From: Candidatus Aldehydirespirator sp.
GTDB lineage: Bacteria; Actinomycetota; Acidimicrobiia; Acidimicrobiales; Aldehydirespiratoraceae
DNA: 64,000 nucleotides
Assembly: GCA_965261105.1 (NCBI GenBank)
Contig: CBDHCM010000006.1
Span: forward strand, 1,284,405 to 1,348,404
Reading direction: 5' to 3'
Below are positions 12,759 through 60,480 of the stretch, one piece after another. Each line of letters begins with the position of its first letter. Positions within the stretch are counted from its first letter, which is position 1. A model generated the notes under the pieces. That model worked only from the letters and a program-made list of their open reading frames with translations. It was not told the DNA's origin and searched no databases. The position numbers and the translations under genes were made by a program.

Positions 12759-13652
12759 ATGTTCAGCTTCCGCTACGTGCTGCGCGAGACCGGCCAGAAC
12801 CTGTGGCGCAACATCCTGCTCTCGGTGGCGACGGTGATCACCGTGGGCGTGTCACTGGCGATGTTCGGCGGCTTCATGCTGTTCCAGGCGGCGGTGGACA
12901 GCGCCACAGCCCGCTGGGCGGACGGCGTCGAGCTCATCGTGTGGATGAACGCCGACATTGAGACGGCCGAGGACTCCAGCATCCGCAACCAATTGGACGA
13001 GAGCCCCGGCGTGCTGCGGTGGGAGTACGTCGACCGGGAGCAGTCCTACGAGGAGTTCAGGGAGTTTTTCGAGGACACGCCCGAGGTTCTCGACATCACG
13101 ACCCCCGAGGAGGTGCCCCCGTACTACCGGGTGGTGCCCACCGATCCCGCCCCCGACGTAGTCGAGGAGTTGGCCGGCCAGTTCAAGGGCCGGCCCGGAG
13201 TCCGCAGGGTGACTACCGCAGTGGAGGTGATCCGCGATGTGCAGAATCTCTCGGACCGGGCCGGGCGGGTGCTGTTCATCGGTTCGATAGTCCTGCTCGC
13301 GGCCTCCACGCTGCTGATCCTCAACACGCTGGCGGTGGCCATCGGCAACCGGCGCACCGAGATCGAGATCATGCGGCTGGTGGGGGCCACCAAGGCGTTC
13401 ATCCGCATCCCGTTCATGCTCGAGGGCCTGGTGCAGGGCCTGCTCGGAGCGGCGGTGGCCATCACCAGCAACGCGCTGTTGCGCAACTACGTGATCGACC
13501 AGTTCAGCGACGCCGACGGCCTCCAACTGCTGGCCGGGTTCAAGGTGGACGACTCCGCCATGCTCCAGGTCAACCTGCTGGTGGTGGGGATCGCGGTGGG
13601 AGTGGCGGTCGTCGGCTCCAACATCGCAGTCGCCATGCACATCAACGAGTAG
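12759..13652 (+). CDS. ftsX: cell-division ABC transporter permease FtsX
   Basis: 297 aa. N-terminal FRYVLRETGQNLWRNILLSVATV, a periplasmic domain, then three C-terminal TM helices including EIEIMRLVGATKAFIRIPFMLEG. Confidence 0.93.
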   Translation: MFSFRYVLRETGQNLWRNILLSVATVITVGVSLAMFGGFMLFQAAVDSATARWADGVELIVWMNADIETAEDSSIRNQLDESPGVLRWEYVDREQSYEEFREFFEDTPEVLDITTPEEVPPYYRVVPTDPAPDVVEELAGQFKGRPGVRRVTTAVEVIRDVQNLSDRAGRVLFIGSIVLLAASTLLILNTLAVAIGNRRTEIEIMRLVGATKAFIRIPFMLEGLVQGLLGAAVAITSNALLRNYVIDQFSDADGLQLLAGFKVDDSAMLQVNLLVVGIAVGVAVVGSNIAVAMHINE

Positions 13653-13781
13653 CCCCGCCGGCGCGCTCCCGGCGCCGGCAGTGTTCTTGCCGATAGCCCC
13701 GCCGGCGCGCTCCCGGCGCCGGCAGTGTTCTTGCCGATAGCCCCGCCGGCGCGCTCCCGGCGCCGGCAGTGTTCTTGCCGA
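13650..13781 (+). terminator. three tandem 44-bp units, each containing a GC hairpin (putative triplicated intrinsic terminator)
   Basis: Unit TAGCCCCGCCGGCGCGCTCCCGGCGCCGGCAGTGTTCTTGCCGA occurs at 13650, 13694 and 13738, all identical. The stem GCCGGCGC / GCGCCGGC has a 7-nt loop followed by GTGTTCTTG. The first unit begins with the ftsX TAG stop. Confidence 0.7.
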
Positions 13782-13880
13782 TTGTTCGCGTCCAGTTGGC
13801 GCACCATTGTCTATGCAATCTTGTGATAGAATAGGGAATTGCAACTTCCCCCATGTGTTCGGCTACATGTGGGGAGAGCC

Positions 13881-16553
13881 ATGCCATCGAATGCTTCCGT
13901 CATCGAGGCGGTACGCGTAGGGTTCAGGCCGGTGAACGCCGAGGAACTACTGAGCCGACTGGTGTCGCGTGGGGTTGCGCAGGGAGCCCAGCCGGGCTCG
14001 GGCGCTACGCGGGCCGTGCGGTTCGGGCATTTCGAGGTTGCGACGGCTGACAACGCCGGGGAACGCCGGATGCGGGCGCTCTGGCGAGCGCGCGTCGGCA
14101 GCTCCGCTGTGAGCTACCTGCTGATCGCCGATGACGCCGACGTCGACGGAAACGTGTTGGCACTCGGGCCCCGCTCAGTGCTCGAGCCGGCCCGCTCCGT
14201 GGATTGTGCCGGGCTCGCGGCAGTGCTCGAGGAGGCCGCGCCGATGGTTGCGCTCGAAGCGGTGCGTCACGTTGCCGGTGAGGTCGTCCGGCTGGCGGGA
14301 CGGGGCGTCGTCGTCCACGGCCTGCTGACCCGCCACACGCTGGAGTCGCGGCTTCACGACGACCCTGGTTTCCGGGTCTTCGCCGCCGAGACCCTCGAGG
14401 GGTTGCGCATCGACGGCGACTGGCGTTCGGTTCTGCGCACGGTCGGATACGACATCGAACGGCTGGAGCCCCGCGGCTACCTGGCTCGCTTCGAGGGCCG
14501 CCCGGTCGTCGTCGTGCATCCAAGAGCCGACCCGAGCGACTTCATGCGCCTCGATGATGCGGGACGCCCAGCCGAGGGGGTGTTGGCGGGTGATTGCCGC
14601 GCTCGCGGAGCCCGCTACGGCATTCTCGCCTCTCGTAACCGCTATCGCCTGTTTGATTGCGATGTGTCGGCCTCAACCGCGGAATGGCTGGATCTCGACG
14701 CCGAACTGCTGGGCGAGTCTCGCCGCTCCTACCTCGCTCTGCTCGCCCCGAGCTATCTGGCCCAGGGAGGCCTGGCCGAACTGCAAGCCGATGCCCAGGC
14801 GTTTGGATCGCCACCTCGGCGGAGTCCGCCGCACTGCTGAGACCGACCCCGGGCGGGCCGCGGAGCAACTGCTCGACTTCGCGGTGCTCGACCCGGCCTG
14901 CGGCAGCGCGCACTTCCTGGTGCAGGTCACCGGGCAGCTCGCGGAGCGCACGGTCGTTTTCCTCGCCGAGACCCCGCTGCCCGCCATCAAGGAGGCCCTC
15001 GACCGGATGATGCCGCGGTCCTGGCGGCGTCATACCGCTTCCTGTATTGGCCGCTGGAGTTTCCGCAGGTGTTCTCCGGCGAGCGCCCCGGGTTCGACGC
15101 CGTGGTCGGAAACCCTCCCTGGGAGGAGGTGACCGTCGAGGAACTCTCGTTCTATGGGCTGCACCAGCCGGGCCTTCATGGACTGTCATCACGTGAGCAG
15201 AAGAGCGCGATCGCCGAACTTGTCGCCGAGCGTCCCGAGTTGCTCGGACTGCTGGCGGAAGCTCGCGGGCGGGCGCAGTCCGAGCGAGATGCCCTGGCAT
15301 CCGGCGAGTACGAGTCGACTAGAGGCGACCCTGATCTGTACAAGTATTTCTGCCAGCGCTATCGCACCCTGGTCCGCCCCAAGGGCGCTGTCGGTGTGGT
15401 GCTGCCGCGCTCCGCCCTCATCAGCAAGGGTTCGGAGGGCTTCCGCAAGTGGCTCTACACCGAGATGACCGCGCGGAGGATCGACACCCTGCTGAATCGT
15501 GGATGCTGGATGTTCGACAGCGAGCCGCGCTACGGCGTAGCCCTGCTCGTGGCAGAACGTCGGAGCCCTTCGGCAGGTCACCGAGTGGCGCTGCTCGGCA
15601 TCGCCGACTCGCAGGAGGCATGGGCCGGCCAGTCAGCATCACCGGGCGTTCCGGTGGCCGTCTCTTCCCTCGGCGATGGCTGGCTGACTCCGAGACTGCG
15701 GTCACAGGACGAAGCGGACTTGCTGGCCAAACTGCGGACCGGGACGCGCTTCCCCGTTGGGTCAAGCGGCCGGTGGAAATGCTTCCCCGTCGCCGAACTC
15801 CATGAGACCAACGACAAGAGCCTGTGGGAGGGCAAGCAGCGCGGTCGCCCGCTGTGGAAGGGCGAGAGCTTCGACCAGTACAACCCCCACGGTGAGGCCG
15901 CCCGACGGTGCCCCGTCAGCGCCAAGTTATGGAAGAAGGTTCGCAAGCCCCGACCCGGCCAGGACTCCGTGGTTGCTGAATCAACCAACCGCGCCGAGCG
16001 TCGCCAAGCGGTAGCAGTGGAACTGGACCGGGCGAGGGTCGCGTTCCGGGATGTGGCCCGATCCGACGACAGCAGGACGGTCCGCGCTTGTCTGGTTCCG
16101 CCCAAGCTCTTGCTCACCAACAAGGCGCCGTACGTGGCGTTTCTGGGCGGCGATGAGACAGTCCAGGCTGCGTGCCTCGGCGTGATGAACAGCATGCCTT
16201 TCGATTGGCAGGCCCGCCGGTACGTGGAAATCAATCTGAACTTCTTCATCCTTGAAGCGCTGACGGTGCCCGATCTTGAAGACGAGGACTACGCCGAGAT
16301 CGCCCGAGCGGCCGCTCGGCTCTCAGCCATCGACAGCCGCTTCGCCACGTTCGCCGCGGCGGTCGGGGTGGAGCAGGGTCGGCTGCTAGCCGACGAACGT
16401 CGGCGACTGAAGGCTGAGATCGACGCGCGGGTGGCCCGAGCCTGGAAGCTCACCGAGGCCGACTTGGAGACGATGTTCGCGGACTTCAGCGCCGACGCGG
16501 TGCCGCCTGCCTACCGTGCCTTGGTGATCGAGCGACGGCGCGAGCTGGGCTGA
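13881..16553 (+). pseudogene. eroded Eco57I/type IIG-like N6-adenine DNA methyltransferase, split over three frames with internal deletions
   Basis: Segment 1 (13881..14840) is an N-terminal domain ending ...NRYRLFDCD...LAELQADAQAFG. Segment 2 (frame of ORF 14554..15132) carries SAM motif I, LLDFAVLDPACGSAHFLV, at about 14870-14930. Segment 3 (frame of ORF 15069..16553) reads ...YRFLYWPLEFPQVFSGERPGFDAVVGNPPWEEV, with NPPW at 15111-15122, plus a ~480-aa C-terminal region. The helical regions expected before motif I and between motifs I and IV are missing. ATG 13881 is preceded by GGGGAGAG. Confidence 0.75.
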
Positions 16554-16557
16554 TCCC

Positions 16558-19500
16558 GTGCCCGGCCGTCCCTACCTGCTCGACAACCTCAGCGACTCCG
16601 GCCGCCACGCCGGCGCGCTCAGCTACCTGCTCGACGACATCGACGCCCACCACGGTCTGTCGGTGGCCACCGGATACGTCAACCTGGGCGGATTGCATCA
16701 TGTCGCCGTTGCCGTCACCGGCGAGCGGCAGGTCCGGCTGCTGATCGGCGCGACCCCCGCGCCCGGCCTTGGGGCACTGCTTCCCGACTCGCTCTTCGAG
16801 CTGACCCTGGCCGGGCTGCGCCAGGACCGGGATCTGTCCCGGTTCCCGCCGAGCCGAGCTTCAACGCAGCTCCTCGCCCTCAACTCGTGGCTCGACCGCC
16901 CCGAGATCGAGGTCCGCCGCTACACCAGACGCTTTCTGCACGGCAAGGCCTATCTGTTCGGTGACACCGACGACGCCCGTGCCGCTCTGGTCACCTCGGC
17001 CAACCTCACCGGCGCCGGCCTCTTCCAAAACTTGGAGTTGGGTCTCGTCCAGTACGACCCGCCCGTAGCCGGCCAGGCCATCGCGTGGTTCGACCAGCTT
17101 TGGGCCGAGGCCGAGGAATTCAAGGACGAACTGCGTGAGCTGCTGTTCCCCGAGATCGGCCTGGTCACCCCCAGAACGGTCTACCTGAGAGCCTTGCTGG
17201 AACTGCTCGACGCTGAAGTTGACGAGCCGCCGGGGCCGCTCCCCGGCACCGTGGATCTGGCGCCGTTCCAGCGCGACGGGTTCAACCGCGCCCTGCGCAT
17301 CCTGAGCGGCCACCACGGCGTGATCTACGCCGACGGAGTCGGCACGGGCAAGACCGAGATCGGACTCGCCCTGATCGAGGAGTACTCGCTGCGCAGAGGC
17401 CTGCACGCGCTGGTAGTCGCCCCCGCTCAGCTCGTCGAGTACTGGAACGAGAGGCTGTCGCAGTCCCGGCTCCCCGCACAGGTGGTGAGCTTCCACCAAC
17501 TCGCCGCTGATGAGCAGTTGGCTGCACCCGATATGTCGAACCAGCGTCGCCACCTCCACAGCGACAAGGACGTCTACCGGCTCGTCGTAGTGGACGAGGG
17601 GCACGCCCTGCGCACACCCGGCACCACCTGGTACCGGGCCGTGTCGCGCCTGCTCGGCGGCGTGCAGAAGGATCTCGCCCTGCTGACCGCCACTCCCATC
17701 AACAACGGCCTGTGGGACCTCTATCACCTGGTGATGGCCTTCGCCCGCCACGACCGGGCGTTCGCGGGCCACGGCATCCCGTCACTGAGGCGTCTCTTCG
17801 TGAGCGCCGGCGCCAACGAGCGAGACGTCGAGAACCTCGACCCCGACGTGTTGTTCCCGCTGGCCGACATGGTGAGCGTTCGCCGGGACCGCCGTTTCAT
17901 CGAGCGCCACTACCCCGACGAGACCTTCCCCGACGGCACTCCCGTCTCGTTCCCCACTCCAGTGCTGTCCACCGAGCGCTACGACCTCGATGCCGCGTTC
18001 CCTCGCCTGGTGCAGTTGATCACCGCCAGCCTCGCCCACCTAAAGATGGCCCGGTACCGTCCGAGCGTCTACCGGAACGTCGGCGACGAGGTCGGGCGCG
18101 AGGCCGCGCTTGGTGCCCTGCTGCAGTCGGCCGTGCTTAAGCGGTTCGAGTCGTGCTGGCAGGCATGCATGCTCACGATCAACCGAATGATCGCCGCCCA
18201 CGACACCTTCCTCGCCGCCTGGGACGGCGGTTGGGTCCTAACCGGCGATGCGCTTCGAGAGGCGGCCTCGCTCGATCTGGACGAGTCGGGCCTGGCCGGC
18301 TGGCTGCAGGAGAACCTCGACGAAGCCGGGCGGGAGTCGGTCGAAGACTTCAAGCCCGCCTATCGCACCGACGTCAGTGCAGACCGAGACGTTCTGTACG
18401 TCTGCGCGGACGCCTTGGGGAAGCTCGACGCCGAGGGCGACCCGAAGTTGGCCCTGCTTCGGCGTCTGCTCGCGGATGTCCCGTCCAGGAAGGTGATCGT
18501 CTTCTCCGCGTTCGCCGACACCGTGCGCTACCTGGACGAGAACCTGTCGGCGCAGATCGACGGACGCGAGCGGGTGACCGTGATCGGCGCGGAGACCGAC
18601 CCCGATCAGCGCACGGCCATGCTCGCCCGCTTCTGCCCCGAGACGGTCGTGCGCCCCGGCTACGTGCCTCCCGACGGCGAGGTGGACCTGCTGTTGAGCA
18701 ACGACGTCCTCTCCGAAGGCCAGAACCTGCAGCAGGCCGCGGCGGTCATCAGCTACGACATGCCCTGGAACCCCCAGCGCGTCGTTCAACGCTACGGCCG
18801 TGTCGTGCGGCTCAAGAGCCCCCACGACCGGGTGTCGCTGGTCACCATGCTCCCCGAGCCCGGCGACCTCGAATTGATCCTGAACCTTGAAGCGGCAATA
18901 CGCCGCAAGATCGTGGCCGCCCGCCCCTACGGCATGGAGATCGAGGTGGTCGAGAGTGATGTGGCCGAAGAGATCAAGTCCTACGCCCGGCGCCTGAGCC
19001 GAGGCGACCAGTCGCTGCTCGACGAGGCCGGCGAATCAGCCGAGTCGCGAACCGTGAGCGGTGAACTGCTGCGGGCCGAGCTGCGCCGAGCCGCCGCCGA
19101 GGGCGAGATAGACAGGGTCCGCAATCTGCCGTGGGGGATAGGTGCCGCCTTCGCCCAGGGATCGGGCGTTCCCTCGGCCGGCCCGCCCGGAGTGTTCCTC
19201 GCCTGCCGCACTCGCGGCGGCGAGAGGTACTGGCGCTACGTGGCGGACAGTGGCGAGCCGGCGTCCGCGCCGGCAACGATCCTGCGCCGCATCGATCCCG
19301 GGGACGCACCCGGTGTGCCCAACCCGCCCATCGACCTGGACGCAGCTTGGTCGACCGCGGCATCTTCGATCATCGACGAGCACAACGAAGCAGCCTCTGC
19401 GTCGGCCGACAACCGCTCGCTGGGGCCGATCCAGCGCTGGGCCCGAAGTCTGCTGGAGGACGTGAGCGTGTCGTCGCCGCCATCAGCAGCCGACGCCTAC

Positions 19501-19731
19501 GAAGCCCTCGGCGCCGAGCGCAGCACGCTCGTCCGCCACGATCTAGCCAAGATCAAGAGGTCCCTAGACAACGACTCGATCACCCCGGATGAAGCCGCCC
19601 GCCAAGTGGTAGCGGTAGTCGAGTTCCACGGCCTCCGAGCCGTGGATGCAGCACCACCAGCACCCCAGATCACCGAGAACGACTTAGGAGTAGTCTGCTG
19701 GATGGCCGTCCTCCCCGAGCGTCGGGAGTAG
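16558..19731 (+). CDS. HKD (phospholipase-D family) nuclease domain fused to an SNF2/DEAD-like helicase
   Basis: 1057 aa; GTG is 5 nt after the MTase stop. The HKD motif is RRFLHGKAYLFGD...ALVTSANLTGAGL (HGK at 16939-16947). Helicase motifs are FQRDGF...YADGVGTGKT (motif I), VVVDEGHALR (DEGH), LLTATPINN, and a helicase-C block LSEGQNLQQAAAVISYDMPWNPQRVVQRYGRV. The ~300-aa C-terminal region is unassigned. Confidence 0.85.
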   Translation: MPGRPYLLDNLSDSGRHAGALSYLLDDIDAHHGLSVATGYVNLGGLHHVAVAVTGERQVRLLIGATPAPGLGALLPDSLFELTLAGLRQDRDLSRFPPSRASTQLLALNSWLDRPEIEVRRYTRRFLHGKAYLFGDTDDARAALVTSANLTGAGLFQNLELGLVQYDPPVAGQAIAWFDQLWAEAEEFKDELRELLFPEIGLVTPRTVYLRALLELLDAEVDEPPGPLPGTVDLAPFQRDGFNRALRILSGHHGVIYADGVGTGKTEIGLALIEEYSLRRGLHALVVAPAQLVEYWNERLSQSRLPAQVVSFHQLAADEQLAAPDMSNQRRHLHSDKDVYRLVVVDEGHALRTPGTTWYRAVSRLLGGVQKDLALLTATPINNGLWDLYHLVMAFARHDRAFAGHGIPSLRRLFVSAGANERDVENLDPDVLFPLADMVSVRRDRRFIERHYPDETFPDGTPVSFPTPVLSTERYDLDAAFPRLVQLITASLAHLKMARYRPSVYRNVGDEVGREAALGALLQSAVLKRFESCWQACMLTINRMIAAHDTFLAAWDGGWVLTGDALREAASLDLDESGLAGWLQENLDEAGRESVEDFKPAYRTDVSADRDVLYVCADALGKLDAEGDPKLALLRRLLADVPSRKVIVFSAFADTVRYLDENLSAQIDGRERVTVIGAETDPDQRTAMLARFCPETVVRPGYVPPDGEVDLLLSNDVLSEGQNLQQAAAVISYDMPWNPQRVVQRYGRVVRLKSPHDRVSLVTMLPEPGDLELILNLEAAIRRKIVAARPYGMEIEVVESDVAEEIKSYARRLSRGDQSLLDEAGESAESRTVSGELLRAELRRAAAEGEIDRVRNLPWGIGAAFAQGSGVPSAGPPGVFLACRTRGGERYWRYVADSGEPASAPATILRRIDPGDAPGVPNPPIDLDAAWSTAASSIIDEHNEAASASADNRSLGPIQRWARSLLEDVSVSSPPSAADAYEALGAERSTLVRHDLAKIKRSLDNDSITPDEAARQVVAVVEFHGLRAVDAAPPAPQITENDLGVVCWMAVLPERRE

Positions 19732-19766: not shown

Positions 19767-21092
19767 ATGGTCGGCCAAATGACTGAATCGACTAGCACTG
19801 ATGCGGGCGTTGGAGCTACACGCGTAGAGGCGCTGTACTACCGCTCTCTGCGATACATATCGCAGCCGCTTGGGCGTTTCCACATCCTCGTGGGTGCTAA
19901 TGCCAGCGGCAAGTCCAACTTCCTCGATGTGCTTGCATTTCTAGGCGACGTCCTCAGCACCGATCTGCAGACGGCCATGCTCGGTGATGATCGGCTGAAC
20001 ATCCCGCTGCGGGCCGCCGACGGACGCGATCTGCTCTGGGCGGGATCCCGGGGATATTCGTGGCAGGCACACAACTCGTTTGAGCTAGCGGTTGAGATGG
20101 CCATCCCTGAGGGGCTGAGCAGCCACTCCGTGTGTCGGTACGAGGTAGCGATTGACGTCTCGTCCGAGCCCGTATTCGTTTCCGAGACACTTTGGCTCAA
20201 GCCCCGTGTGGCAACCTTGCCTCTGAAGGAAGGTCGCAGGCACGTTTTTCCCCATCCTCCAGACCCACCGATTCAGATTGCGCGAGGCCCAGGCGAGCAT
20301 GGTCCCGAGGGCTGGGAGAGAGTCCTGTCAAGGGGACGAACACCCGAGCGGGTCAACTATCGATCCGAGACGAGCGGTTGGACCGCTCCGTTTCAGATCG
20401 CCGCGGGTAAGTCAGCTCTGGCCAACCTCCCTGAGGACCACTCGCTGTTCCCGGTCGCTCTCTGGTTCCGGCAGAAGTTGCTTGGCGCTGAGCGGATTGT
20501 TCTATCGGGGGAGGCCATGCGGCGACCGTGTCCGCCAATCCGGCGTCACGAGTACCTGCCTGACGGATCCAACCTTCCCCATGTGGTTCACCAGTTGGCG
20601 AACTCCCACCCGGACAGGCACGAGCGCTGGATCAGGCACGTTCGCGAGGCGCTGCCGGACATCATCGGCATCACGACGCGCGAGCGGGAGGAGGATCGGC
20701 ATCGCTATGTCGTGCTGGAACACTCCAACGGGCAGGAGATGCCGTCATGGCTGGTGTCCGACGGCACGCTGCGACTTCTTGCGCTCACGCTGCTGGCCTA
20801 CCTGCCCGACATGACCGGGATATACCTAATTGAAGAGCCCGAGAACGGCCTACACCCGCTGGCAGTTGAGACGGTTCTACAGTCCCTGTCGTCGGTGTAC
20901 GACGCGCAGATCCTGCTTACGACGCATTCGCCGCTCGTAGCCCGTCTCGCTGAGCCGGACGAACTGCTTTGCGTCGCTCGAGACGAGACGGCGGGCACCG
21001 ACATGGTCAAGGGGACGGAACATCCGCGCTTGCGCGACTGGCAGGGATCGGCCGATCTCGGCACACTCCTCGCAAGCGGCGTCCTGGGATGA
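19767..21092 (+). CDS. AAA_15/AAA_21-type (ABC/SMC-like) ATPase
   Basis: 441 aa with Walker A ILVGANASGKSNFLDVL (19893-19916). The C-terminal block YLIEEPENGLHPLAVETVLQSL...ILLTTHSPLV is a Walker B/D-loop/H-loop arrangement typical of OLD/AbiL/PARIS-type defence ATPases. GC is about 58-60%. Confidence 0.8.
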   Translation: MVGQMTESTSTDAGVGATRVEALYYRSLRYISQPLGRFHILVGANASGKSNFLDVLAFLGDVLSTDLQTAMLGDDRLNIPLRAADGRDLLWAGSRGYSWQAHNSFELAVEMAIPEGLSSHSVCRYEVAIDVSSEPVFVSETLWLKPRVATLPLKEGRRHVFPHPPDPPIQIARGPGEHGPEGWERVLSRGRTPERVNYRSETSGWTAPFQIAAGKSALANLPEDHSLFPVALWFRQKLLGAERIVLSGEAMRRPCPPIRRHEYLPDGSNLPHVVHQLANSHPDRHERWIRHVREALPDIIGITTREREEDRHRYVVLEHSNGQEMPSWLVSDGTLRLLALTLLAYLPDMTGIYLIEEPENGLHPLAVETVLQSLSSVYDAQILLTTHSPLVARLAEPDELLCVARDETAGTDMVKGTEHPRLRDWQGSADLGTLLASGVLG

Positions 21093-21703
21093 CGGCGGAC
21101 CTCCTATGCCTCGTGGCTGACAAGAACATGGAGGCCGCCGTCTCGGGACTGTTGTCTCGGCCGAGAGCGCTCGGCATTCGACCTATTGCGCGTGAACTGA
21201 TGGTCCATCCTGAGCGCGATCCGGGCTGCTTTCACAATGGCGTCGAGTTCCTCCGTGGCCTGCGTTCTCGGGCGGAGCACGCGCTGGTATTGCTCGACCT
21301 CGCCTGGCAGGGCGTGCCCGCGGAATCGGCATCCGAACTTGAGGGCCGGCTTGAGACGAATCTGGCGCGGGCAGGCATGACGGACTGGGCAAGAGCGGTG
21401 GTCATCGAGCCAGAACTTGAGGCCTGGGTCTTCGGCCGTTCCAGGCACATCCCGACAGCGCTGGGCTGGCCCGAGAGTAGTGAAGGACTTCGATCGGCTT
21501 TGGCTGCCAACGGTCTGTGGCCAGCTGAAGACCACAAGCCTCCAGACCCCAAGGCGGCTATGGAATGGGCACTGAGGCGTGTGGCGATTCCACGGTCGTC
21601 GTCGATATACCGCCAGCTCGCAGCGAAGGTCGGCACGAAGAAGTGCACGGATCGAGCCTTCGTCCGGTTTCGTACCCTTCTGCAGAACTGGTTCCCGGCC
21701 TAG
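21089..21703 (+). CDS. small partner protein of the AAA ATPase (possibly DUF4276/RloB/TOPRIM-like)
   Basis: 204 aa. Its ATG overlaps the ATPase TGA (ATGA at 21089-21092). LLCLVADKNMEAAVSGLL, ALVLLDLAW and VVIEPELEAWVFG follow the spacing of acidic residues seen in DUF4276/TOPRIM-like partners. This assignment is from memory of the family, not a search. Confidence 0.6.
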   Translation: MTADLLCLVADKNMEAAVSGLLSRPRALGIRPIARELMVHPERDPGCFHNGVEFLRGLRSRAEHALVLLDLAWQGVPAESASELEGRLETNLARAGMTDWARAVVIEPELEAWVFGRSRHIPTALGWPESSEGLRSALAANGLWPAEDHKPPDPKAAMEWALRRVAIPRSSSIYRQLAAKVGTKKCTDRAFVRFRTLLQNWFPA

Positions 21704-21715
21704 ACGGGTCTCGGA

Positions 21716-21850
21716 CTATCGGGTCGCTTGGCTGTGCTTGGCTTGCTTGAGGGCTTGGTACAGCGCTTTCTGGATGCGGTTGCCGCGGCGGCCGTAGCCC
21801 CGTTGAGCAAGCGTCTCCTCGAACGATCTGCGCGTCGGTCCGCAGATAGC
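21716..21850 (-). pseudogene. short relic of a gene 3' end
   Basis: One minus frame reads ...SFEETLAQRGYGRRGNRIQKALYQALKQAKHSQATR* (stop at 21716-21718). An adjacent frame reads ...QWVMPDGYLRTDAQIV just upstream. Both look protein-like but are short, frameshifted and lack a start. Confidence 0.25.
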
Positions 21851-21898
21851 CGTCGGGCATCACCCATTGAGCGAGTGGCCGCGCAGCGGTCGAGTTGG

Positions 21899-23014
21899 TC
21901 AGGCCAGGGTGTCGAGGGGCTCGGTGTATCCGAGGCCCAGGGCGTCGGCCACTGCGGGCTCGGTGATCTGGCCGTGGCGCACGCTGAGGCCGTCCTGCAG
22001 GCCCTTGTCGGCCGCGATGGCGTCGACGATGCCCTGGTCGGCCAGCCTGATCACGTAGGGGAGGGTGGCGTTGTTGAGGGCCTGGGTGGAGGTGCGGGGG
22101 ACCGCTCCGGGCATGTTGGCCACGCAGTAGTGAACGACCTCGTGGACGATGTAGGTGGGGTCGGCGTGGGTGGTGGGACGGGACGTCTCGGCGCAGCCGC
22201 CCTGGTCTATGGCCACATCGACGATCACCGTGCCCGGCCGCATCACCTTCACCATCTGGGCGGTGATCAGGCGGGGCGCCCGGGCCCCGGGCACCAGCAC
22301 CGCCCCGATCACCAGATCCGCGGTGTACACCGCCTGGGCCAGCCGGCTGGGGCTGGAGTACAGGGTGCGCAGGGCCGGGCCGAAGCGGGCCGCCAGCAAC
22401 TCGAGCACGCCGGCATCGCGGTCCAGCACGGTCACGTCGGCACCGAGCCCGAGCGCCATCTCCACCGCGTTGGTGCCCACGACGCCGCCGCCGATGACCG
22501 TGACCGGTGCGGCGGCCACTCCGGGCACGCCGCCCAGCAGCACCCCGCGGCCGCCCGCGGATGCCTCCAGGCAGCGGGCGCCGGCCTGGATGGCCAGGCG
22601 GCCCGCTACCTGGGACATGGGGGCGAGCAACAGGAGGCGGCCCTTTCGGTCGGTGACCGACTCGTAGGCGATGGCGGTGGCCCCGCCGGCCAGCAGGTCG
22701 CGGGCCTGGTCGGGGTCGGGGGCGAGGTGCAGGTAGGTGAACAGGGTGTGGCCGCGGCGCAGGAGGGCCCTCTCGGGGGCTTGGGGCTCCTTGACCTTCA
22801 CGATCAGCTCGGCCGCGTCGAAAACCTCCGCGGCGCTGTCCAGCACCGAGGCGCCGCGGCTGCTGTACTCCTCGTCGTCGTAGCCGGCCCCCGCGCCGGC
22901 CCGGCGCTCGACGTAGACATCGTGGCCCCGGTCGACCAGCTCGGCCGCGCTCTCGGGGGTGAGCCCCACCCGGTGTTCCTCGCTCTTGATCTCCTTGGGC
23001 ACACCGATGCGCAT
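21899..23014 (-). CDS. ald: alanine dehydrogenase
   Basis: Homology begins at MRIGVPKEIKSEEHRVGLTPE (ATG at 23014, 13 codons inside track ORF 21899..23053). It carries the NAD fold VTVIGGGVVGTNA and a typical AlaDH C-terminus. Confidence 0.93.
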   Translation of the reverse strand: MRIGVPKEIKSEEHRVGLTPESAAELVDRGHDVYVERRAGAGAGYDDEEYSSRGASVLDSAAEVFDAAELIVKVKEPQAPERALLRRGHTLFTYLHLAPDPDQARDLLAGGATAIAYESVTDRKGRLLLLAPMSQVAGRLAIQAGARCLEASAGGRGVLLGGVPGVAAAPVTVIGGGVVGTNAVEMALGLGADVTVLDRDAGVLELLAARFGPALRTLYSSPSRLAQAVYTADLVIGAVLVPGARAPRLITAQMVKVMRPGTVIVDVAIDQGGCAETSRPTTHADPTYIVHEVVHYCVANMPGAVPRTSTQALNNATLPYVIRLADQGIVDAIAADKGLQDGLSVRHGQITEPAVADALGLGYTEPLDTLA

Positions 23015-23141
23015 GTTGGACCCCTCCAGCCTGCGAGTGGTGAAATGATACACGCGCTGCTGCGATCAATTCTGAGCGATTTTCCTCCTAGATCTCCTTA
23101 CGGCGCTTATTCTTTGCATCACATCGGCGATTCTGCGCAAA

Positions 23142-42612: not shown

Positions 42613-45600
42613 TCAGCCGGAGAAGTATAGCTGTATCACCGCTAGCACGTCGTCTTTGGTGATTCGGCCGGCGAAGTAGTCGGCCACCGCCGCGATGGTC
42701 TCGTCACGGTCGACCACTTCGTTGTTGTCCACGTCGTAGGAACCTGAGTGCACGTCGGTGACTGTGATGGTCACCGCGACGGTCGCGCTCGCGCCCGATG
42801 AGTCCGTGGCAGTGACGGTCACCTCGTAGACGTTCTTGTCGGCCTCGTAGTCCAGTGCCGTCTCGGCCCGGACCCTGATCTGGCCCGTGTCGGCGTCGAT
42901 GGTGAACAAGGCCGCGTCGGCGCCGCCGAGCGTGTAGGTCAGCGCGCCGCCGTCCTGGCCCATGACTGCGACCGGACCGCCCACGACCTCGCCCTCGCCG
43001 GTGTTCTCCGCCACGCTCCTCTCTGCCACGTCGTCGTCGTCGGCGACGGTCACAGCCACCCCGGCGACGGCCACCGCGGCGTACTCGGCGGCGCTGCCGG
43101 CGGCCACCACCATGTGCGAGACGGCGGCCGCGTCGTCCACCGCGTCGGCGTCGTGGGCCGCGGCCACCGTCACCGTCTGGGCCGTGCTCCACGTGGCCGT
43201 GGTGAAGGTCAGGGTGCTCTGGTCGCCGGACGCCGCGGCGTCGGTGTCCACCGTCACGTCGGCGTTGTCGCTGGTCACGCTGATCACCACGTCAGAGGCG
43301 GGCTCGGCGTCGAGGACCACCGTGTAGGCGTTGGCGCCGCCCTCGGCCACCGCCACCTCGGTGGCCGACACCGTCACCCCCGGCCTCTCGCTCACGGTGA
43401 CAAAGAAGCGCAGGCCAACACTGTCGCCGTCGGAATCGGTCGCGGTGTAGGTGAACCGGGTCCGCGGCAACGCCGCGCCGGGCGTGCCGGTGATGGTGCG
43501 GTTCGAGTTGAAGCGCAGCCCCGGCGGCAGCCCCGGCGACAGGCTGTACCGCAGGCCGCCGTCACCCCGAAGAGCGGAGGGCAGGCTCACCGTCCCCACA
43601 TCCTCACCCACCGTATAGATCTGGTCGCCCACCGTACGCGAGGAGAACGTCGGAATCTGGTCGGGCGAAACACCGCCGCCGGGCGAACCACCACCGCCGG
43701 GCGAACCACCGCCACCGGGCGAACCACCGCCACCGGGCGAACCACCACCGGACGGCGGGGTTACGGTGTCGTCGTCGGCGACGGTCACCGCCACCGCGGC
43801 GATGGTCGCGTTGTCGAACTCGTTGGCGCTGCGGGAGGCGTTGACGGCGTGGGCGATGGATGCCGTGTCGTTCGCGGTGTCGGTGTCGTGGGCGGCCCGC
43901 ACCGTCACCGTCTGGGCTGTGCCCCAGTTGCTGGTGGTGAAGGTCAGGGTGGCCGGCGTTGCCGTCACGTCGCTGCTGCCGCTCCTGGTGACGTTGATCA
44001 CCACGTTGGATGCGGGCTGGGCGTCGAGCACCACGGTGTAGGTGTTGTTGGCGCCCTCGGCGACTGTCAGCGCGGACTTGGACACCGTCACCGCGGCGTC
44101 GTCGTCGGTGACGGTGACGCTCACCGCGGCGATGGTCACGGTGTCGTACTCGTTGGCGCTTTGGGAGGCGTTGACGGTGTGGGTGATGGATGCTGTGTCG
44201 TTCGCGGTGTCGGTGTCGTGGGCGGCCCGCACCGTCACCGTCTGGGCTGTGCTCCAGTTGCTCGGGGTGAGCGTCAGGGTGGCCGGCGTCGCGGTCACGT
44301 CGCTGCTGCCGCTCCTGGTGACGTTGATCACCACGTTGGATGCGGGCTGGGCGTTCAGCACCACGGTGTAGGTGTTGTTGGCGCCCTCGCCCACTGTCAG
44401 CGTGGACTTGGACACGGTCACCGCGGCGGTGTCGTCGTCGGTGACGGACACGCTCACCGCGGCGACGGTCACGGTGTCGTACTCGTTGGCGCTGCGGGAG
44501 GCGTTGACGGCGTGGCTGATGGAGGCGGTGTCGTTCGCCGTGTCGGCGTCCTGGGCGGCCCGCACCGTCACCGTCTGGGCTGTGCCCCAGTTGCTGGCAG
44601 TGAAGGTCAGGGTGGCCGGAGTCGCGGTCACGTCGCTGCTGCCGCTTTTGGTGACGTTGATCACCACATTGGCGGAGGGCTGGGTGTTCAACACCACCGT
44701 GTAAGTCTTGTTGGCGCCTTCGGCCACCGTCACCGCAGACTCAGACACGGTCACCGCGGCGGTGTCATCGTCGGTCACAGACACCGCCACCGAGGCGACG
44801 ATAGTCACACCGTCGTACTCGTTGGCGCTTCGAGAGGCGATGACGGGGTGGGCGATGGAGGCTGTGTCGTTCACAGCGTCAGCGTCTTGGGCAGCAGCCA
44901 CCGTCACCGTCTGAGCTGTGCTCCAGTTGCTGGTGGTGAAAGTCAAAGTGGCCGGCGACGCGGTCACGTCGCTGCTGCCGCTCCTGGTGACGTTGATCAC
45001 CACATTGGCGGAGGGCTGGGTGTTCAACACCACCGTGTAAGTCTTGTTGGCACCCTCAGCCACCGTCACCGAGGACGCGGACAGGGTAACCCCGGCGGAG
45101 TCATCGTCGGTCACAGACACCGCCACCGCGGCGATAGTCACGTTGTCATACTCGTCGGCGCTTGAGGCAGCCACCACCGCGTGGGCGATGGAGGCTGTGT
45201 CGTTCACAGCGTCGGCGTCTTGGGCGGCGGCCACGGTCACCGTCTGAGTTGTGCTCCAGGTGCTGGAAGTGAAAGTCAAAGTGGCCGGCGACACCGTCAC
45301 GTCGCTGCTGCCGCTCCTGGTGACGTTGATCACCACATTGGCGGAGGGCTGGGTGTTCAACACCACCGTGTAAGTCTTGTTGGCGCCCTCAGCCACCGTC
45401 ACCGAGGACGCGGACAGGGTAACCCCGGCGGTGTCATCGTCGGTCACAGACACCGCCACCGCGGCGATAGTCACGTTGTCATACTCGTCGGCGCTTGAGG
45501 CAGCCGCCACCGCGTGGGCGATGGAGGCTGTGTCGTTCACAGTGTCGGCGTCTTGGGCGGCGGCCACGGTCACCGTCTGAGTTGTGCTCCAGGTGCTGGT

Positions 45601-48600
45601 GGTGAAAGTCAAAGTGGCCGGCGAGACCGTCACGTCGTTGCTGCCGCTCCTGGTGACGTTGATCACCACATTGGCGGAGGGTTGGGTGTTCAACACCACC
45701 GTGTAAGTCTTGTTGGCGCCTTCAGCCACCGTCACCGAGGACGCGGACAGGGTAACCCCGGCGGTGTCGTCGTCGTCGACAGACACTGTCACCGCGGCGA
45801 TAGTCACAGCATCGTACTCGTCGGCGCTTGAGGCAGCCACCACCGCGTGGGCGATGGAGGCTGTGTCGTTCACAGTGTCGGCGTCTTGGGCGGCGGCCAC
45901 GGTCACCGTCTGAGTTGTGCTCCAGTTGCTGGTGGTGAAAGTCAAAGTGGCCGGCGAGACCGTCACGTCGCTGCTGCCGCTCCTGGTGACGTTGATCACC
46001 ACATTGGCGGAGGGCTGGGTGTTCAACACCACCGTGTAAGTCTTGTTGGCACCCTCAGCCACCGTCACCGCGGTTTCGGACAGGGTAACCCCGGCGGTGT
46101 CATCGTCGGTCACAGACACCGCCACCGCGGCGATAGTCACGTTGTCATACTCGTCGGCGCTTGAGGCAGCCACCACCGCGTGGGCGATGGAGGCTGTGTC
46201 GTTCACAGTGTCGGCGTCTTGGGCGGCGGCCACGGTCACCGTCTGAGTTGTGCTCCAGTTGCTGGTGGTGAAAGTCAAAGTGGCCGGCGACGCGGTCACG
46301 TCGCTGCTGCCGCTCCTGGTGACGTTGATCACCACATTGGCGGAGGGCTGGGTGTTCAACACCACCGTGTAAGTCTTGTTGGCACCTTCGGCCACCGTCA
46401 CCGCGGTTTCGGACAGGGTAACCCCGGCGGTGTCATCGTCGGTCACAGACACCGCCACCGCGGCGATGGTCACGGCATCGTACTCGTCGGCGCTTGAGGC
46501 AGCCACCACCGCGTGGGCGATGGAGGCTGTGTCGTTCACAGTGTCGGCGTCTTGGGCGGCGGCCACGGTCACCGTCTGAGTTGTGCTCCAGTTGCTGGTG
46601 GTGAAAGTCAAAGTGGCCGGCGTCGCGGTCACGTCGCTGCTGCCGCTCCTGGTGACGTTGATCACCACATTGGCGGAGGGCTGGGTGTTCAACACCACCG
46701 TGTAAGTCTTGTTGGCACCTTCGGCCACCGTCACCGCGGTTTCGGACAGGGTAACCCCGGCGGTGTCATCGTCGGTCACAGACACCGCCACCGCGGCGAT
46801 GGTCACGGCATCGTACTCGTCGGCGCTTGAGGCAGCCACCACCGCGTGGGCGATGGAGGCTGTGTCGTTCACAGCGTCAGCGTCTTGGGCAGCAGCCACC
46901 GTCACCGTCTGAGCTGTGCCCCAGTTGCTGGAAGTGAAGGTCAGGGTGGCCGGAGTTGCGGTCACGTCGCTGCTGCCGCTCCTGGTGACGTTGATCACCA
47001 CGTCGGATGCGGGCTGGGTGTTCAACACCACCGTGTAAGTCTTGTTGGCACCCTCAGCCACCGTCACCGAGGACGCGGACAGGGTAACCGCGGCGGTGTC
47101 GTCGTCGGTGACGGTGACGGTCACCGCGGCGATGGTCGCGTTGTCGTACTCGTTGGCGCTTTCGGCGGCGTTGACGGCGTGGCTGATGGAGGCTGTGTCG
47201 TTCGCGGTGTCGGCGTCGTGGGCGGCGGCGACGGTCACTGTCTGGGCTGTGCTCCAGTTGATCGGGGTGAAGGTCAGGGTGTCTTGGCTGCCGGACGTCC
47301 CCGTGTCGGTATCCACCGTCACGTCGGAATTGTTGCTGGTCACCGCGATCACCACGTTGGAGGAGGGCTGGGCGTCAAGCACCACCGTGTAGGTGTTGTT
47401 GTTGCCCTCGGCGACTGTCAGCGTGGACTTGGACACGGTCACCGCGGCGGTGTCGTCGTCGGTGACGGTGACGGTCACCGCGGCGATGGAGGCGTTGTCG
47501 TACTCGTTGGCGCTGCGGGAGGCGTCGACGGTGTGGGTGATGGAGGCTGTGTCGTTCGCGGTGTCGGCGTCGTGGGCGGCGGCGACGGTCACCGTCTGGG
47601 CTGTGCTCCAGTTGCTGGTGGTGAAGGTCAGGGTGGCCGGCGTCGCGGTCACGTCGCTGCTGCCGCTCCTGGTGACGTTGATCACCACGTCAGAGGAGGG
47701 CTGGGCGTCGAGCACCACCGTGTAGGTGTTGTTGTTGCCCTCGGCGACTGTCAGCGTGGACTTGGACATGGTCACCGCGGCGGTGTCGTCGTCGGTGACG
47801 GTGACGGTCACCGCGGCGATGGTGGCGTTGTCGTACTCGTTGGCGCTGCGGGAGGCGTCGACGGTGTGGGTGATGGAGGCTGTGTCGTTCGCGGTGTCGG
47901 CGTCGTGGGCGGCGGCGACGGTCACTGTCTGGGCTGTGCTCCAGTTGTTGGTGGTGAAGGTCAGGGTGGCCGGCGTCGCGGTCACGTCGCTGCTGCCGCT
48001 CTTGGTGACGTTGATCACCACGTCAGAGGAGGGCTGGGCGTCGAGCACCACCGTGTAGGAGCCGCTGCCGCCCTCGTCCACCGTCAGCGCGGACTTGGAC
48101 ACCGTCACCGCGGCGTCGTCGTCGGTGACGGTGACGGTCACCGCGGCGATGGTCACGTTGACGTACTCGTTGGCGCTGCGGGAGGCGTCGACTGCGTGGG
48201 CGATGGATGCCGTGTCGTTCGCCGCGTCGGCGTCCTGGGCGGCGGCCACGGTCACCGTCTGGGCCGTGCCCCAGCTACTGGTGGTGAAAGTCAAAGTGGC
48301 CGGCGACACCGTCACGTCGCTGCTGCCGCTCTTGGTGACGTTGATCACCACGTCAGAGGAGGGCTGGGCGTCGAGCACCACCGTGTAGGAGCCGCTGCCG
48401 CCCTCGTCCACCGTCAGCGCGGACCCAGACACCGTCACCGCGGCGTCGTCGTCGGTGACGGACACGCTCACCGCGGCGATAGTCACAGCATCGTACTCGT
48501 CGGCGCTTGAGGCAGCCACCACCGCGTGGGCGATGGATGCCGTGTCGTTCGCCGCGTCGGCGTCTTGGGCGGCGGCCACGGTCACCGTCTGAGTTGTGCT

Positions 48601-59900: not shown

Positions 59901-60480
59901 GCGGCGTCGGCGTCGTGGGGGGCGGACACCTTCGCCGTCTGCGGCGTGTTCCAGTTGTCCGGGGTGAAGAGCATGACGGCCTGGTCGCCTTCCCTGCCCG
60001 CGTCGGCGTCCACCCCCACGTCCGGGTTCTTGCGGTCAATGCGAATCACCACGTCGGCGGCGGGCTGGGCGTCGAGCACCACGGTGTAGGTGGCGCTGGC
60101 GCCCTCGGCCACCGTCAGCATGGTTTCGGACACCGTCACCCCGGCGGTGTCGTCGTCGGTGACGGTCACGGCCACCCCGGCGATGGTGGCGGTGTCGTAC
60201 TCGTCGGCGCTTTCGGCGGGCACCACCGCGTGGGCGATGGCGGCCGAGTCGTTCACCGCGTCGGCGTCCTGGGCGGCGGCCACCGTCACCGTCTGCGCCG
60301 TGTCCCAGTTGGACCGGGTGAAGGTCAGCCGGTCCTGGTTGCCGGACGTCGCCGCGTCGGTGTCCAGCGTCACGTCGGAACTGCCGCCGGCGGTCACCGT
60401 GATCACCACGTCGGAGGCGGGCTGGCCGTCCAGCACCACGGTGTAGGCGGCGCGGCCGCCCTCGGCCAACGTCAGCGCGG
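43330..60480. repeat. tandem array of about 50 coding repeats, period 327-351 bp (mostly 330/333 bp)
   Basis: The periodicity shows in the antisense ORF ladder (stops every 330-333 bp from 43766 to 58694) and in the protein. Sub-arrays at about 44.7-47.0 kb and 48.4-49.9 kb are near-identical. Confidence 0.95.

Follow-up and report, generated by a model that had tools for sequence, protein, structure and literature searches.

Restriction subunits in which an HKD nuclease is joined to a superfamily 2 (SF2) helicase are a recognised theme of Type I- and Type III-like systems (PMC12839542, PMC10853773). Type-2 BR is built around a DUF499 AAA+ ATPase, which is accompanied by an HKD-Snf2 helicase, an N6-methyltransferase (N6-MTase) and, in 98% of taxa, DUF3780 as a separate protein (PMC12839542). 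DISARM and ARMADA have a YprA/DUF1998 helicase core (bioRxiv 10.1101/2025.09.15.676423, 10.1101/2025.09.22.677730), and Hma, or Type-1 BR, combines an MTase and a DUF499 ATPase with a Snf2 helicase that bears a PD-(D/E)xK nuclease at its C-terminus (PMC8565338, PMC11232893, PMC12839542). MADS is an 8-gene Type I-like operon of Pseudomonas aeruginosa, in whose detection model MAD6-8 are mandatory (bioRxiv 10.1101/2023.03.30.534895). The present work concerns a gene for an HKD nuclease-Snf2 helicase fusion, and the large MTase paired with it, in a 64,000-nucleotide stretch of Candidatus Aldehydirespirator sp. (assembly GCA_965261105.1, contig CBDHCM010000006.1), referred to below as the window.

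The fusion is read here, with a probability of about 0.68, as the subunit responsible for restriction and motor activity in an ATP-dependent defence module of two genes that resembles restriction-modification (R-M) systems, which has recently been orphaned in the window and is harmless there. The gene and its parts are the following, HKD motifs being those of the phospholipase D (PLD) superfamily.

16558..19731, plus strand: HKD (PLD) nuclease-Snf2 helicase fusion, intact, GTG start, 1057 aa, candidate Res-like subunit of the two-gene module
16939..17004, plus strand: single HKD catalytic motif, H128-x-K130 ... D139-x6-T146-S147-x-N149, within the PLDc_2 and RE_NgoFVII matches
17245..18852, plus strand: Snf2 ATPase core, with lobe 1 at about aa 230-400, an insertion, and lobe 2 at about aa 630-765 (SNF2-rel_dom and Helicase_C)
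18865..19728, plus strand: conserved C-terminal region, about aa 770-1057, ending ...GVVCWMAVLP

A first-pass annotation, made from the letters alone, described an intact 1057-aa fusion of an HKD nuclease and a SNF2 helicase next to a dead methyltransferase, and both halves of that description are confirmed. The Pfam profiles PLDc_2 (aa 113-182, 34.5 bits against a cut-off of 27), SNF2-rel_dom (aa 238-392, 35.2 against 24.9) and Helicase_C (aa 630-752, 59.1 against 23.5) are all found in the polypeptide, and RE_NgoFVII reaches 22.1 bits, under its cut-off of 23.8. The nuclease part carries the HxK(x)nD...(G/T)SxN signature of the PLD superfamily within a PLD fold, and only one such motif is present per polypeptide. 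The motor has the N- and C-lobes and motifs I, II, III and VI of Snf2-family SF2 enzymes, with the Walker A sequence (GTGKT) and the DEGH box in lobe 1 and motif VI in lobe 2. Sequence and fold comparisons with the Protein Data Bank (PDB) both give RapA, SsoRad54 and Ino80 as its nearest relatives. A fold search with the predicted model returned generic Snf2 enzymes only, RapA being first and the best match over the whole length, at low TM-scores of 0.2-0.26 that lend weak support. The C-terminal region has no Pfam match, and the Pfam scan detects no DNA-reader or target-recognition domain in the fusion. The top PADLOC model is ‘HKD+Snf2’ (PDLC01075, E = 3.6e-38, partial coverage), followed by lower-ranked partial matches to DrmD, HmaA, BrxH, DpdE, PbeA and DrmC.

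The catalytic residues are fully conserved. In an alignment of 18 homologues, the lowest identity being 63%, H128, K130, D139, T146, S147 and N149 of the HKD motif are invariant, as are Walker A (G262-T-G-K-T266), motif II (D346-E-x-H349), motif III (T377-A-T-P380) and motif VI (Q740-R..Q744-R-x-G-R748), together with many columns across the C-terminal region. Homologue alignments begin at residue 1, which supports the annotated GTG start. At the 335 near-invariant columns of a 115-sequence alignment, comprising 114 full-length homologues, the fusion has no private changes, compared with a median of 2 and a maximum of 5 in 40 control homologues, indicating that the gene is intact and without early decay.

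A word-indexed search with the fusion yields 1443 homologues at E <= 1e-10. An exhaustive search of cluster representatives places 1170 clusters (50% identity) in the family at E <= 1e-30, most of them 1050-1150 aa long and aligned end to end, and a scan of one genome per species finds relatives in at least 587 species-level genomes of bacteria and archaea. Among the matches listed, the closest relatives come mostly from sponge-associated metagenome-assembled genomes (MAGs) of Ca. Poriferisodalis, Spongiisociaceae, Longimicrobiales and Dehalococcoidia. Loci of relatives are cited below by their L numbers; in L004-L031, protein identity is 60-85% across phyla of sponge-associated lineages, a level that suggests horizontal exchange of the module within the sponge habitat.

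The neighbourhood of the gene was surveyed in 82 loci, one genome per species, using open reading frame (ORF) sets, iterated hidden Markov models and clustering of neighbouring ORFs. The sole recurrent neighbour of the fusion is a large MTase, found in 58 of the 82 loci and lying upstream on the same strand for 59 of its 68 members. Where at least 4.5 kb of upstream sequence is available, the MTase is present in 49-50 of 54 loci, including tblastn corrections for L005 and L014 (about 91% same-strand linkage). There is no third conserved partner, no other family occurring in more than 6 of the 82 loci, a count reached by ftsE alone. The two genes adjoin directly in about half of the loci with an upstream MTase, most commonly through an overlap of 4 or 1 nt, and such an overlap or a gap of at most 17 nt is seen in 15 of 40 full-length pairs. 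In about 22 loci the partners are separated by 0.6-6.8 kb of other genes, and these are of defence type: ABC (ATP-binding cassette) ATPases like HEC-01A/MAD3, DUF4276 and OLD-like TOPRIM proteins, DpnII/MboI and Mrr nucleases, a Piwi protein, and pairs of a helix-turn-helix protein with an M78 peptidase. Defence genes are embedded likewise in Hma, BREX, DISARM and Type I R-M loci (bioRxiv 10.1101/2024.01.29.577857). The gene-neighbourhood clustering proposed in the first-pass annotation has thus shown MTase plus HKD-Snf2 to be a conserved two-gene unit, and the enrichment near MTases and defence genes, together with the conserved HKD residues, points to a real MTase-linked defence module.

The partners also diverge in step: over the 40 full-length pairs, the pairwise identities of MTase and fusion correlate with r = 0.955 (Mantel test, reached by 0 of 2000 permutations), and inside the close clade with r = 0.96. 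The pair is carried on plasmids of cultured organisms, pJCM6399 of Mycobacterium gallinarum (WP_163738745 and WP_163738742) and pHLAC01 of the archaeon Halorubrum lacusprofundi (WP_012660153 and WP_012660152), on the latter with insertion sequence (IS) elements at its flanks, and is annotated there only as ‘hypothetical protein’ and ‘helicase-related protein’. Remoter plasmid relatives of the fusion show other MTase-linked arrangements.

One cluster representative of 1955 aa, P0257, has an N6-MTase-like N-terminus (motif I DPVCGYGTLL, motif IV-like NPPR) followed in the same polypeptide by PLDc_2, SNF2 and Helicase_C and, at its end, by the C-terminal signature of the fusion family. Its MTase-like part belongs to a family other than that of the partner MTase (hhalign probability 1.8%), which reduces this protein from Rosetta-stone evidence to a weak hint that MTase and fusion may cooperate physically.

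The intact MTase of close relatives has 1311-1312 aa and matches Eco57I and MmeI_Mtase of Pfam; its stop codon lies 4 nt before the fusion start in L001 and L002 and overlaps it by 1 nt in L003. The PADLOC model REase_MTase_IIG covers aa 264-1291 (392 bits) and DrmMI covers aa 529-835 only (250 bits). The NCBIfam models for PglX, Alw26I and MAD2 are all below threshold (for MAD2, 21.6 bits against 720). To judge from these matches, the partner is an N6-adenine MTase of about 1300 aa with the layout of Type IIG, DrmMI and PglX enzymes, in which a domain of nuclease fold at the N-terminus precedes an MTase core of the gamma class, and a region for target recognition forms the C-terminus. A PDB sequence search with the MTase gave only spurious hits for the single sequence and none for the profile. 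The AlphaFold model of the N-terminal domain (first 319 aa) has a predicted local distance difference test score (pLDDT) of 85.9 and a predicted template modelling score (pTM) of 0.80, with its last helix at aa 297-309. In the fold search nothing matched at E <= 0.001; the partial matches of higher probability were all to PD-(D/E)xK nucleases, namely the Type IIG enzyme BpuSI, the Hjc resolvase, the nuclease domain of HsdR and Cas4, and a conserved D...(D/E)xK catalytic triad was not identified in the alignment of this domain. The MTase core and the layout fit a Type IIG enzyme, the nuclease-fold matches of the N-domain being weak (E > 0.001).

In the window, the partner is reduced to three pieces, which were mapped by tblastn against the 1311-aa MTase of L001.

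13881..14840, plus strand: MTase remnant 1, aa 1-318 (13881-14837), 94% identical to L001, with a frameshifted tail and a stop
14803..15009, plus strand: MTase remnant 2, aa 559-627, in another frame (frame 2), 94% identical by tblastn and 96.6% by blastn
15006..16553, plus strand: MTase remnant 3, aa 797-1311 (797-1310 at 15006-16547), 88% identical to L001

Remnant 1 represents the entire N-terminal restriction-endonuclease-fold domain, and remnant 2 contains the S-adenosylmethionine-binding motif I (DPACGSAHFL). Remnant 3, which contains the catalytic motif IV (NPPW) and the C-terminal target-recognition region, matches Pfam Eco57I and the PADLOC model REase_MTase_IIG (PDLC03620, E = 1.5e-50), and its stop codon is 4 nt upstream of the fusion start codon. 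Relative to L001, two internal deletions have removed about 755 nt and about 511 nt, with junctions at about 14803-14809 and at 15006-15009. The first is bounded by the short direct repeats GCGTTCG(G)ATC, and the second takes out the stretch from motif I to motif IV. An active MTase therefore cannot be made, despite the restored overall reading frame, and both methylation and target recognition are lost in the window. Relative to L001, the ratio of nonsynonymous to synonymous substitution rates (dN/dS) is 0.16-0.19 for the MTase remnants, 0.19 for the fusion and 0.13-0.20 for the housekeeping flanks. The remnants are thus indistinguishable in this respect from intact genes, which dates the deletions to a recent time compared with the divergence from L001; very recent decay, one of the explanations offered in the first-pass annotation, is the best supported of its claims.

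Close relatives display the module in several states of decay. Beside an intact fusion, the MTase is frame-broken in L005, L013 and L017 and disrupted by deletions in the window; the fusion is broken beside an intact MTase in L008, L022 and L087/88; and both genes are broken or largely deleted in L025 and L089-L091, with remnants of the fusion C-terminal region left in L089 and L091. The two genes decay in either order, and losing the MTase first is evidently tolerated. It had been argued that such a loss should be lethal if the nuclease were methylation-sensitive, and this finds no support in natural genomes, where a disrupted MTase stands beside an intact fusion at least four times. In enzymes of Type I, Type III and Type ISP, Res subunits depend on an MTase or target-recognition domain (TRD) partner for their targets. 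Tolerance of MTase loss is what is expected if the fusion, in which no reader domain is detected, likewise needs the MTase/TRD to find its targets.

In the intact module, the MTase would recognise a specific site and methylate host DNA. At unmethylated sites the bound HKD-Snf2 protein, presumably in a physical complex with the MTase, would translocate on double-stranded DNA using ATP, and cleavage would occur when two copies meet, by dimer formation or by collision. PLD-family active sites need two HKD motifs, as in Nuc, BfiI and SauUSI, and since the fusion has one per polypeptide, cleavage should require two copies. Restriction would in this scheme depend on the MTase, and what remains in the window would be an orphaned ‘res’-type gene from which methylation and target recognition are gone, still intact because little time has passed since the loss and harmless because it would be unable to find targets alone. 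Most probably, then, the window holds a Res-like gene that lost its partner recently and is inactive.

The module may first be compared with Type-2 BR. Both pair a protein having an N-terminal HKD domain and a Swi2/Snf2 core of the RapA/BrxHII type with an N6-adenine MTase (dead in the window, intact in relatives), both have a proposed R-M-like logic, and in both other defence genes are embedded in the locus. They differ in that DUF499 and DUF3780 are absent from the window and not recurrent in the 82 loci, and in that the partner here is a Type IIG/DrmMI-like MTase, about 1300 aa long, whose N-terminal domain has a nuclease fold. By Pfam, DUF499 matches no ORF of the island, nor any of the 8 large neighbouring ORFs in relatives, which are unrelated proteins. 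Neither DUF499 nor DUF3780 is among the families listed (25 of 38) for 41 embedded ORFs, none of which is larger than 781 aa. DUF3780 has no Pfam match on the window ORFs, and no small family occurs in more than 4 of the 82 loci, the flanking ORFs not having been exhaustively scanned with Pfam. Identity with Type-2 BR was rejected because DUF499 and DUF3780 are lacking among the ORFs so covered. One of the 8 large neighbours is a full-length DUF6079 (BrxC-like) protein in L073 (5377-9111). The HKD-Snf2 gene upstream of it is a distant relative, and the protein is probably part of an adjacent BREX-related system.

Class 1 DISARM and ARMADA II resemble the module in having a Snf2 helicase of the DrmD/ArmA/BrxHII type beside a large Eco57I-type adenine MTase (DrmMI/ArmB/PglX type) and in including a PLD nuclease activity, and there are partial matches to DrmD, DrmC and DrmMI. 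The differences are the lack of DrmA/DrmB or of a YprA/DUF1998 helicase and the N-terminal fusion of the PLD domain to Snf2 in place of a separate PLD protein. In NCBIfam, the fusion scores 106 bits against 610 for DISARM_DrmD, 78.5 against 950 for DrmD_b and 34.4 against 133 for DrmC_I. DrmB has no PADLOC match on the island ORFs, DrmA has only a partial one on the fusion's own helicase C-lobe, and no DrmA/DrmB-type family is among the recurrent neighbours of the 82 loci, so the earlier statement that DrmA and DrmB are missing holds. The island is bounded by ftsX and ald, with no room for further genes; between these two there is no additional helicase gene that could correspond to ArmC (YprA-like, DUF1998) of ARMADA II, nor ArmD. 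The lack of a DUF1998/YprA helicase rules out identity with either system.

Hma was suggested as a candidate by the PADLOC match to HEC-01A. The Snf2 helicase HmaA, with its fused nuclease, adjoins the MTase HmaB, and the locus is a hotspot of embedded defence genes including HEC-01 (bioRxiv 10.1101/2024.01.29.577857), whose ABC-ATPase cassettes resemble the pair of genes downstream of the fusion. The nuclease of Hma is of another fold and sits at the opposite end of the protein, HmaC (DUF499) is absent here, and the match of the fusion to the HmaA model is confined to aa 641-752, in the C-terminal helicase lobe. Hma is ruled out on account of its C-terminal PD-(D/E)xK nuclease and its HmaC/DUF499 partner. 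The two genes downstream of the fusion belong to the MAD3 and MAD4 families by NCBIfam curated cut-offs, in which the locus is similar to MADS; the Type I-like MTase, specificity subunit, kinase and MAD6-8 of MADS are absent, and no MADS model is among the 20 NCBIfam matches of the fusion. With only MAD3 and MAD4 matching, MADS is ruled out as the identity of the fusion.

In organisation, the module is analogous to Type III and Type ISP enzymes (Res/Mod; LlaGI, LlaBIII), where an MTase/recognition unit is coupled to an SF2 ATP-dependent motor-nuclease unit. There, restriction is tied to Mod/TRD, so that MTase loss abolishes restriction and does not kill the cell, and cleavage probably needs two enzymes meeting. 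The differences lie in the Snf2 motor, which is not of the Res/HsdR type, in the HKD (PLD) nuclease in place of PD-(D/E)xK or Mrr, and in the Type IIG-like MTase partner; apart from the generic motifs of helicases and MTases, no sequence-level kinship with the module was detected. Indirect support for the analogy may be seen in the translational coupling, the co-evolution and the tolerated MTase loss. PbeA is another restriction component with an N-terminal HKD domain fused to an SF2 helicase (PMC10853773). It matches aa 123-314 of the fusion (E = 2.2e-10, PADLOC), and differs in the CxC ABC ATPase, the DndE-like protein and the phosphorothioation found on its side. SauUSI also has the order of PLD nuclease followed by SF2 helicase, and differs in being a Type IV enzyme that consists of one protein and reads modified DNA through a domain of its own. 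The lack of a conserved third partner places the family outside Type-2 BR/Hma, DISARM, ARMADA and MADS, and by its gene content it appears to be a minimal form, of two genes, of the known theme of ATP-dependent R-M in which an HKD-helicase serves as restriction subunit, without belonging to any of the named systems.

The island that carries the module is an insert between secA-prfB-ftsE-ftsX and ald-lrp. Its remaining features are listed here.

12759..13652, plus strand: ftsX, left housekeeping flank of the hotspot, with secA, prfB and ftsE upstream (Pfam)
13650..13782, no strand assigned: perfect tandem repeat of 3 x 44 nt, 100% matches (Tandem Repeats Finder), just past the ftsX stop and marking the island's left edge
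19767..21092, plus strand: MAD3-like ABC-type ATPase (AAA_21), 441 aa, NCBIfam antiphage_MADS3 444 bits against 420
21089..21703, plus strand: MAD4-like protein, 204 aa, non-ATPase, NCBIfam antiphage_MADS4 212-213 bits against 160, PADLOC mad4
21899..23053, minus strand: alanine dehydrogenase gene (ald), right housekeeping flank (Pfam), with lrp beyond

The ftsX flank is found also in L001, L002, L086, L089, L090, L092 and L093, and homology with L002 and L008 picks up again at 21896. Downstream of the fusion, the cargo between ftsX and ald is an unknown 457-aa protein in L001, a PDC-M32A-like gene with a DDE transposase in L002, and a DUF4011 helicase-nuclease in L092 and L093. As the same site holds differing content downstream of the fusion, it behaves as a defence hotspot. 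The MAD3-like ATPase resembles HEC-01A and mad3 of PADLOC and ABC ATPases of the AriA and GajA type. The ATG of the MAD4-like gene at 21089 overlaps the MAD3 stop codon (ATGA), and its product has no Pfam match. The ‘ATPase pair’ of the first-pass annotation is in fact one ABC-type ATPase and one non-ATPase. The stretch of about 195 nt from the MAD4 stop to the ald stop (21704-21898) has no counterpart in L001, L002 and L008, and the GC content, about 68% in the window, drops to 0.64 across 20-22 kb, over MAD3/MAD4; together these suggest that the cassette was acquired separately. A tmRNA-linked island, a candidate prompted by the prfB-ftsE-ftsX context, was rejected, as ARAGORN finds no tRNA or tmRNA in the window.

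The downstream genes give rise to a different interpretation of the locus, in which MTase, HKD-Snf2 protein, MAD3 and MAD4 would form one MADS-like system, with MAD3/MAD4 as its effector or regulator, restraining the orphan nuclease. The four genes lie on the same strand with gaps of at most 35 nt, the last two exceed their curated cut-offs, and the order MTase-fusion-MAD3-MAD4 recurs in L086, L087/88, L092 and L093. About 9 of the 82 species-level loci also have a MAD3-like ATPase inside or beside the module. In canonical MADS, restriction requires mad3, and mad5 is undeletable unless mad2 or mad3 goes too (bioRxiv 10.1101/2023.03.30.534895). However, MAD4 occurs in none of the 82 loci, all four-gene examples are at one chromosomal site in one clade and may stem from a single inherited event, and the closest relative, L001 (95% identity), has other genes downstream, as does L002. 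MAD3/MAD4 remain intact in L089-L091, where MTase and fusion are gone or largely deleted, and hence do not depend on them; MAD6-8 are absent, fusion and intact MTase match no MADS family above threshold, and the GC drop over MAD3/MAD4 also speaks against a unit of four genes, which is accordingly judged improbable. Regulation of the fusion by the downstream pair, as proposed in the first-pass annotation, has not stood up, the pair being limited to the window's clade. By their family matches, MAD3/MAD4 look like an independent ABC-ATPase cassette of the HEC-01/MADS3-4 type, a lineage-specific cargo of the hotspot with no regulatory role towards the fusion. Of this island, they seem to be the part on which selection still acts.

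The fusion could instead be an autonomous effector that works without the MTase, either as a stand-alone defence protein of the HmaA/Hna type or as a SauUSI-like, modification-dependent Type IV enzyme, in which case it would make no difference, or even be an advantage, that the MTase is gone. HmaA, in which a nuclease is fused to a Swi2/Snf2 helicase, is reported to protect E. coli against T4 (PMC11232893). The fusion is pristine, and it is intact in at least 4 genomes with a disrupted MTase. SauUSI shares the order of nuclease and helicase. Against this, the same-strand MTase linkage of about 91%, the overlapping codons and the tight co-evolution are unexpected for an autonomous gene, no recognisable reader or target-recognition domain is found in it by Pfam, and it is lost or broken at the same hotspot in L087-L091, where MAD3/MAD4 persist. 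Recency of the MTase loss explains the intact fusion equally well, and autonomy is considered unlikely. Least probable is that the locus is a degenerate remnant of a larger system such as class 1 DISARM, ARMADA II or Type-2 BR/Hma. This would agree with the partial matches of the fusion to DrmD (95-106 bits) and DrmC (30-34 bits) in PADLOC and NCBIfam, with the DrmMI match of the intact MTase, and with the pairing of an HKD-Snf2 helicase and an N6-MTase in Type-2 BR (PMC12839542). But the matches of the fusion are far under the curated cut-offs, as the DrmD scores show, and DUF1998/YprA, DUF499 and DUF3780 are missing from the window and do not recur among the 82 loci, some of which are intact copies on plasmids. 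Conservation of the two-gene form across phyla and in archaea indicates that it is not a remnant.

Several points weigh against the fusion being an orphaned subunit of a two-gene R-M-like module. The predicted structure of the fusion is of mediocre quality (pLDDT 65, pTM 0.39). The frameshifts in relatives could be MAG assembly errors, which would weaken the argument from tolerance, though the large deletions are not; the window deletions are not base-calling errors, and could in principle represent a minority variant or a misassembly. The co-evolution of MTase and fusion may partly be simple co-inheritance. If the nuclease fold modelled in the MTase N-domain were active, the two proteins would share the work differently from the scheme given here, and by analogy with HmaA the orphan fusion might still be active. 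The literature searched contains no experimental characterisation of the two-gene MTase and HKD-Snf2 family. The phrase ‘type not yet characterised’ of the first-pass annotation is too strong, since HKD-helicase restriction subunits and a module of Snf2 helicase with a PglX/DrmMI-like MTase have already been described computationally (PMC12839542, PMC10853773, bioRxiv 10.1101/2025.09.15.676423).

For the window itself the result is modest, as its module is dead. The family is a good candidate for a minimal Snf2-driven R-M system, and the pair may represent a self-sufficient class of ATP-dependent R-M, with the Snf2-PLD protein as ‘Res’ and the Type IIG-like enzyme as ‘Mod’. It may also be the simplest form of the helicase and MTase module that is elaborated in BREX-3, DISARM, ARMADA and BR/Hma. 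If the intact pair works, it would be the simplest known defence system of this helicase and large-MTase kind, in which two proteins cover recognition, modification, translocation and cleavage, and a tractable model for self/non-self discrimination by a Snf2 motor and a PglX/DrmMI-type MTase. The decay series between ftsX and ald, where the MTase can go first without cell death, bears on the licensing of restriction in this class.

The deletions at the hotspot repeatedly spare the N-terminal domain of the MTase. Their left ends fall at aa 303 in L089, 303 in L090, 318 in the window and about 321 in L091, coinciding with the end of the modelled N-domain. The surviving ORFs, in which the first 300-320 aa are intact, are these.

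8564-9568 in L089: MTase N-domain ORF
8991-9992 in L090: MTase N-domain ORF
525-1493 in L091: MTase N-domain ORF
13881-14840 in the window: MTase N-domain ORF

The four different junction sequences keep the N-domain, MAD3 and MAD4 intact each time. The deletions of L089 and L090 might be of shared ancestry, which leaves at least three independent events. If breakpoints were uniform in the 3.9-kb gene, three events would by our own estimate fall this way with a chance of about 7e-4, and four with one of about 1e-5. Selection for the N-domain ORF, a mutational hotspot, or a constraint tied to how the downstream genes are expressed are possible causes; dN/dS of the orphaned N-domain between L089 and L090 is 0.23, compared with 0.14-0.18 for intact pairs, a value that does not discriminate among them. 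A more speculative and rather doubtful idea is that the N-domain of about 300 aa is an autonomous unit on which selection acts after loss of the module; the survivors, N-domain, ABC ATPase and MAD4, could then make up a new unit of three genes.

Each 44-nt unit of the tandem repeat behind ftsX includes a GC-rich inverted repeat and has a terminator-like look; L001 has one copy of the unit. At the hotspot, a helicase-nuclease of about 1350 aa with the arrangement DUF4011-AAA_11/AAA_12-MTES_1575 is encoded in L092 (10949-15007), L093 (9694-13734) and L091 (6245-10293), and in L091 it is split into three pieces with an adjoining IS110 transposase. Elsewhere in the window, two giant repeat ORFs on the minus strand, 42613-50910 and 50348-62854, encode 2765 and 4168 aa and are made up of units that recur every 330 nt or so (110 aa). 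The products are probably very large repeat proteins of a surface or adhesin-like kind; the sampled part has fn3_6 and CUB-like Pfam matches, and the AT skew is strong across 40-60 kb.

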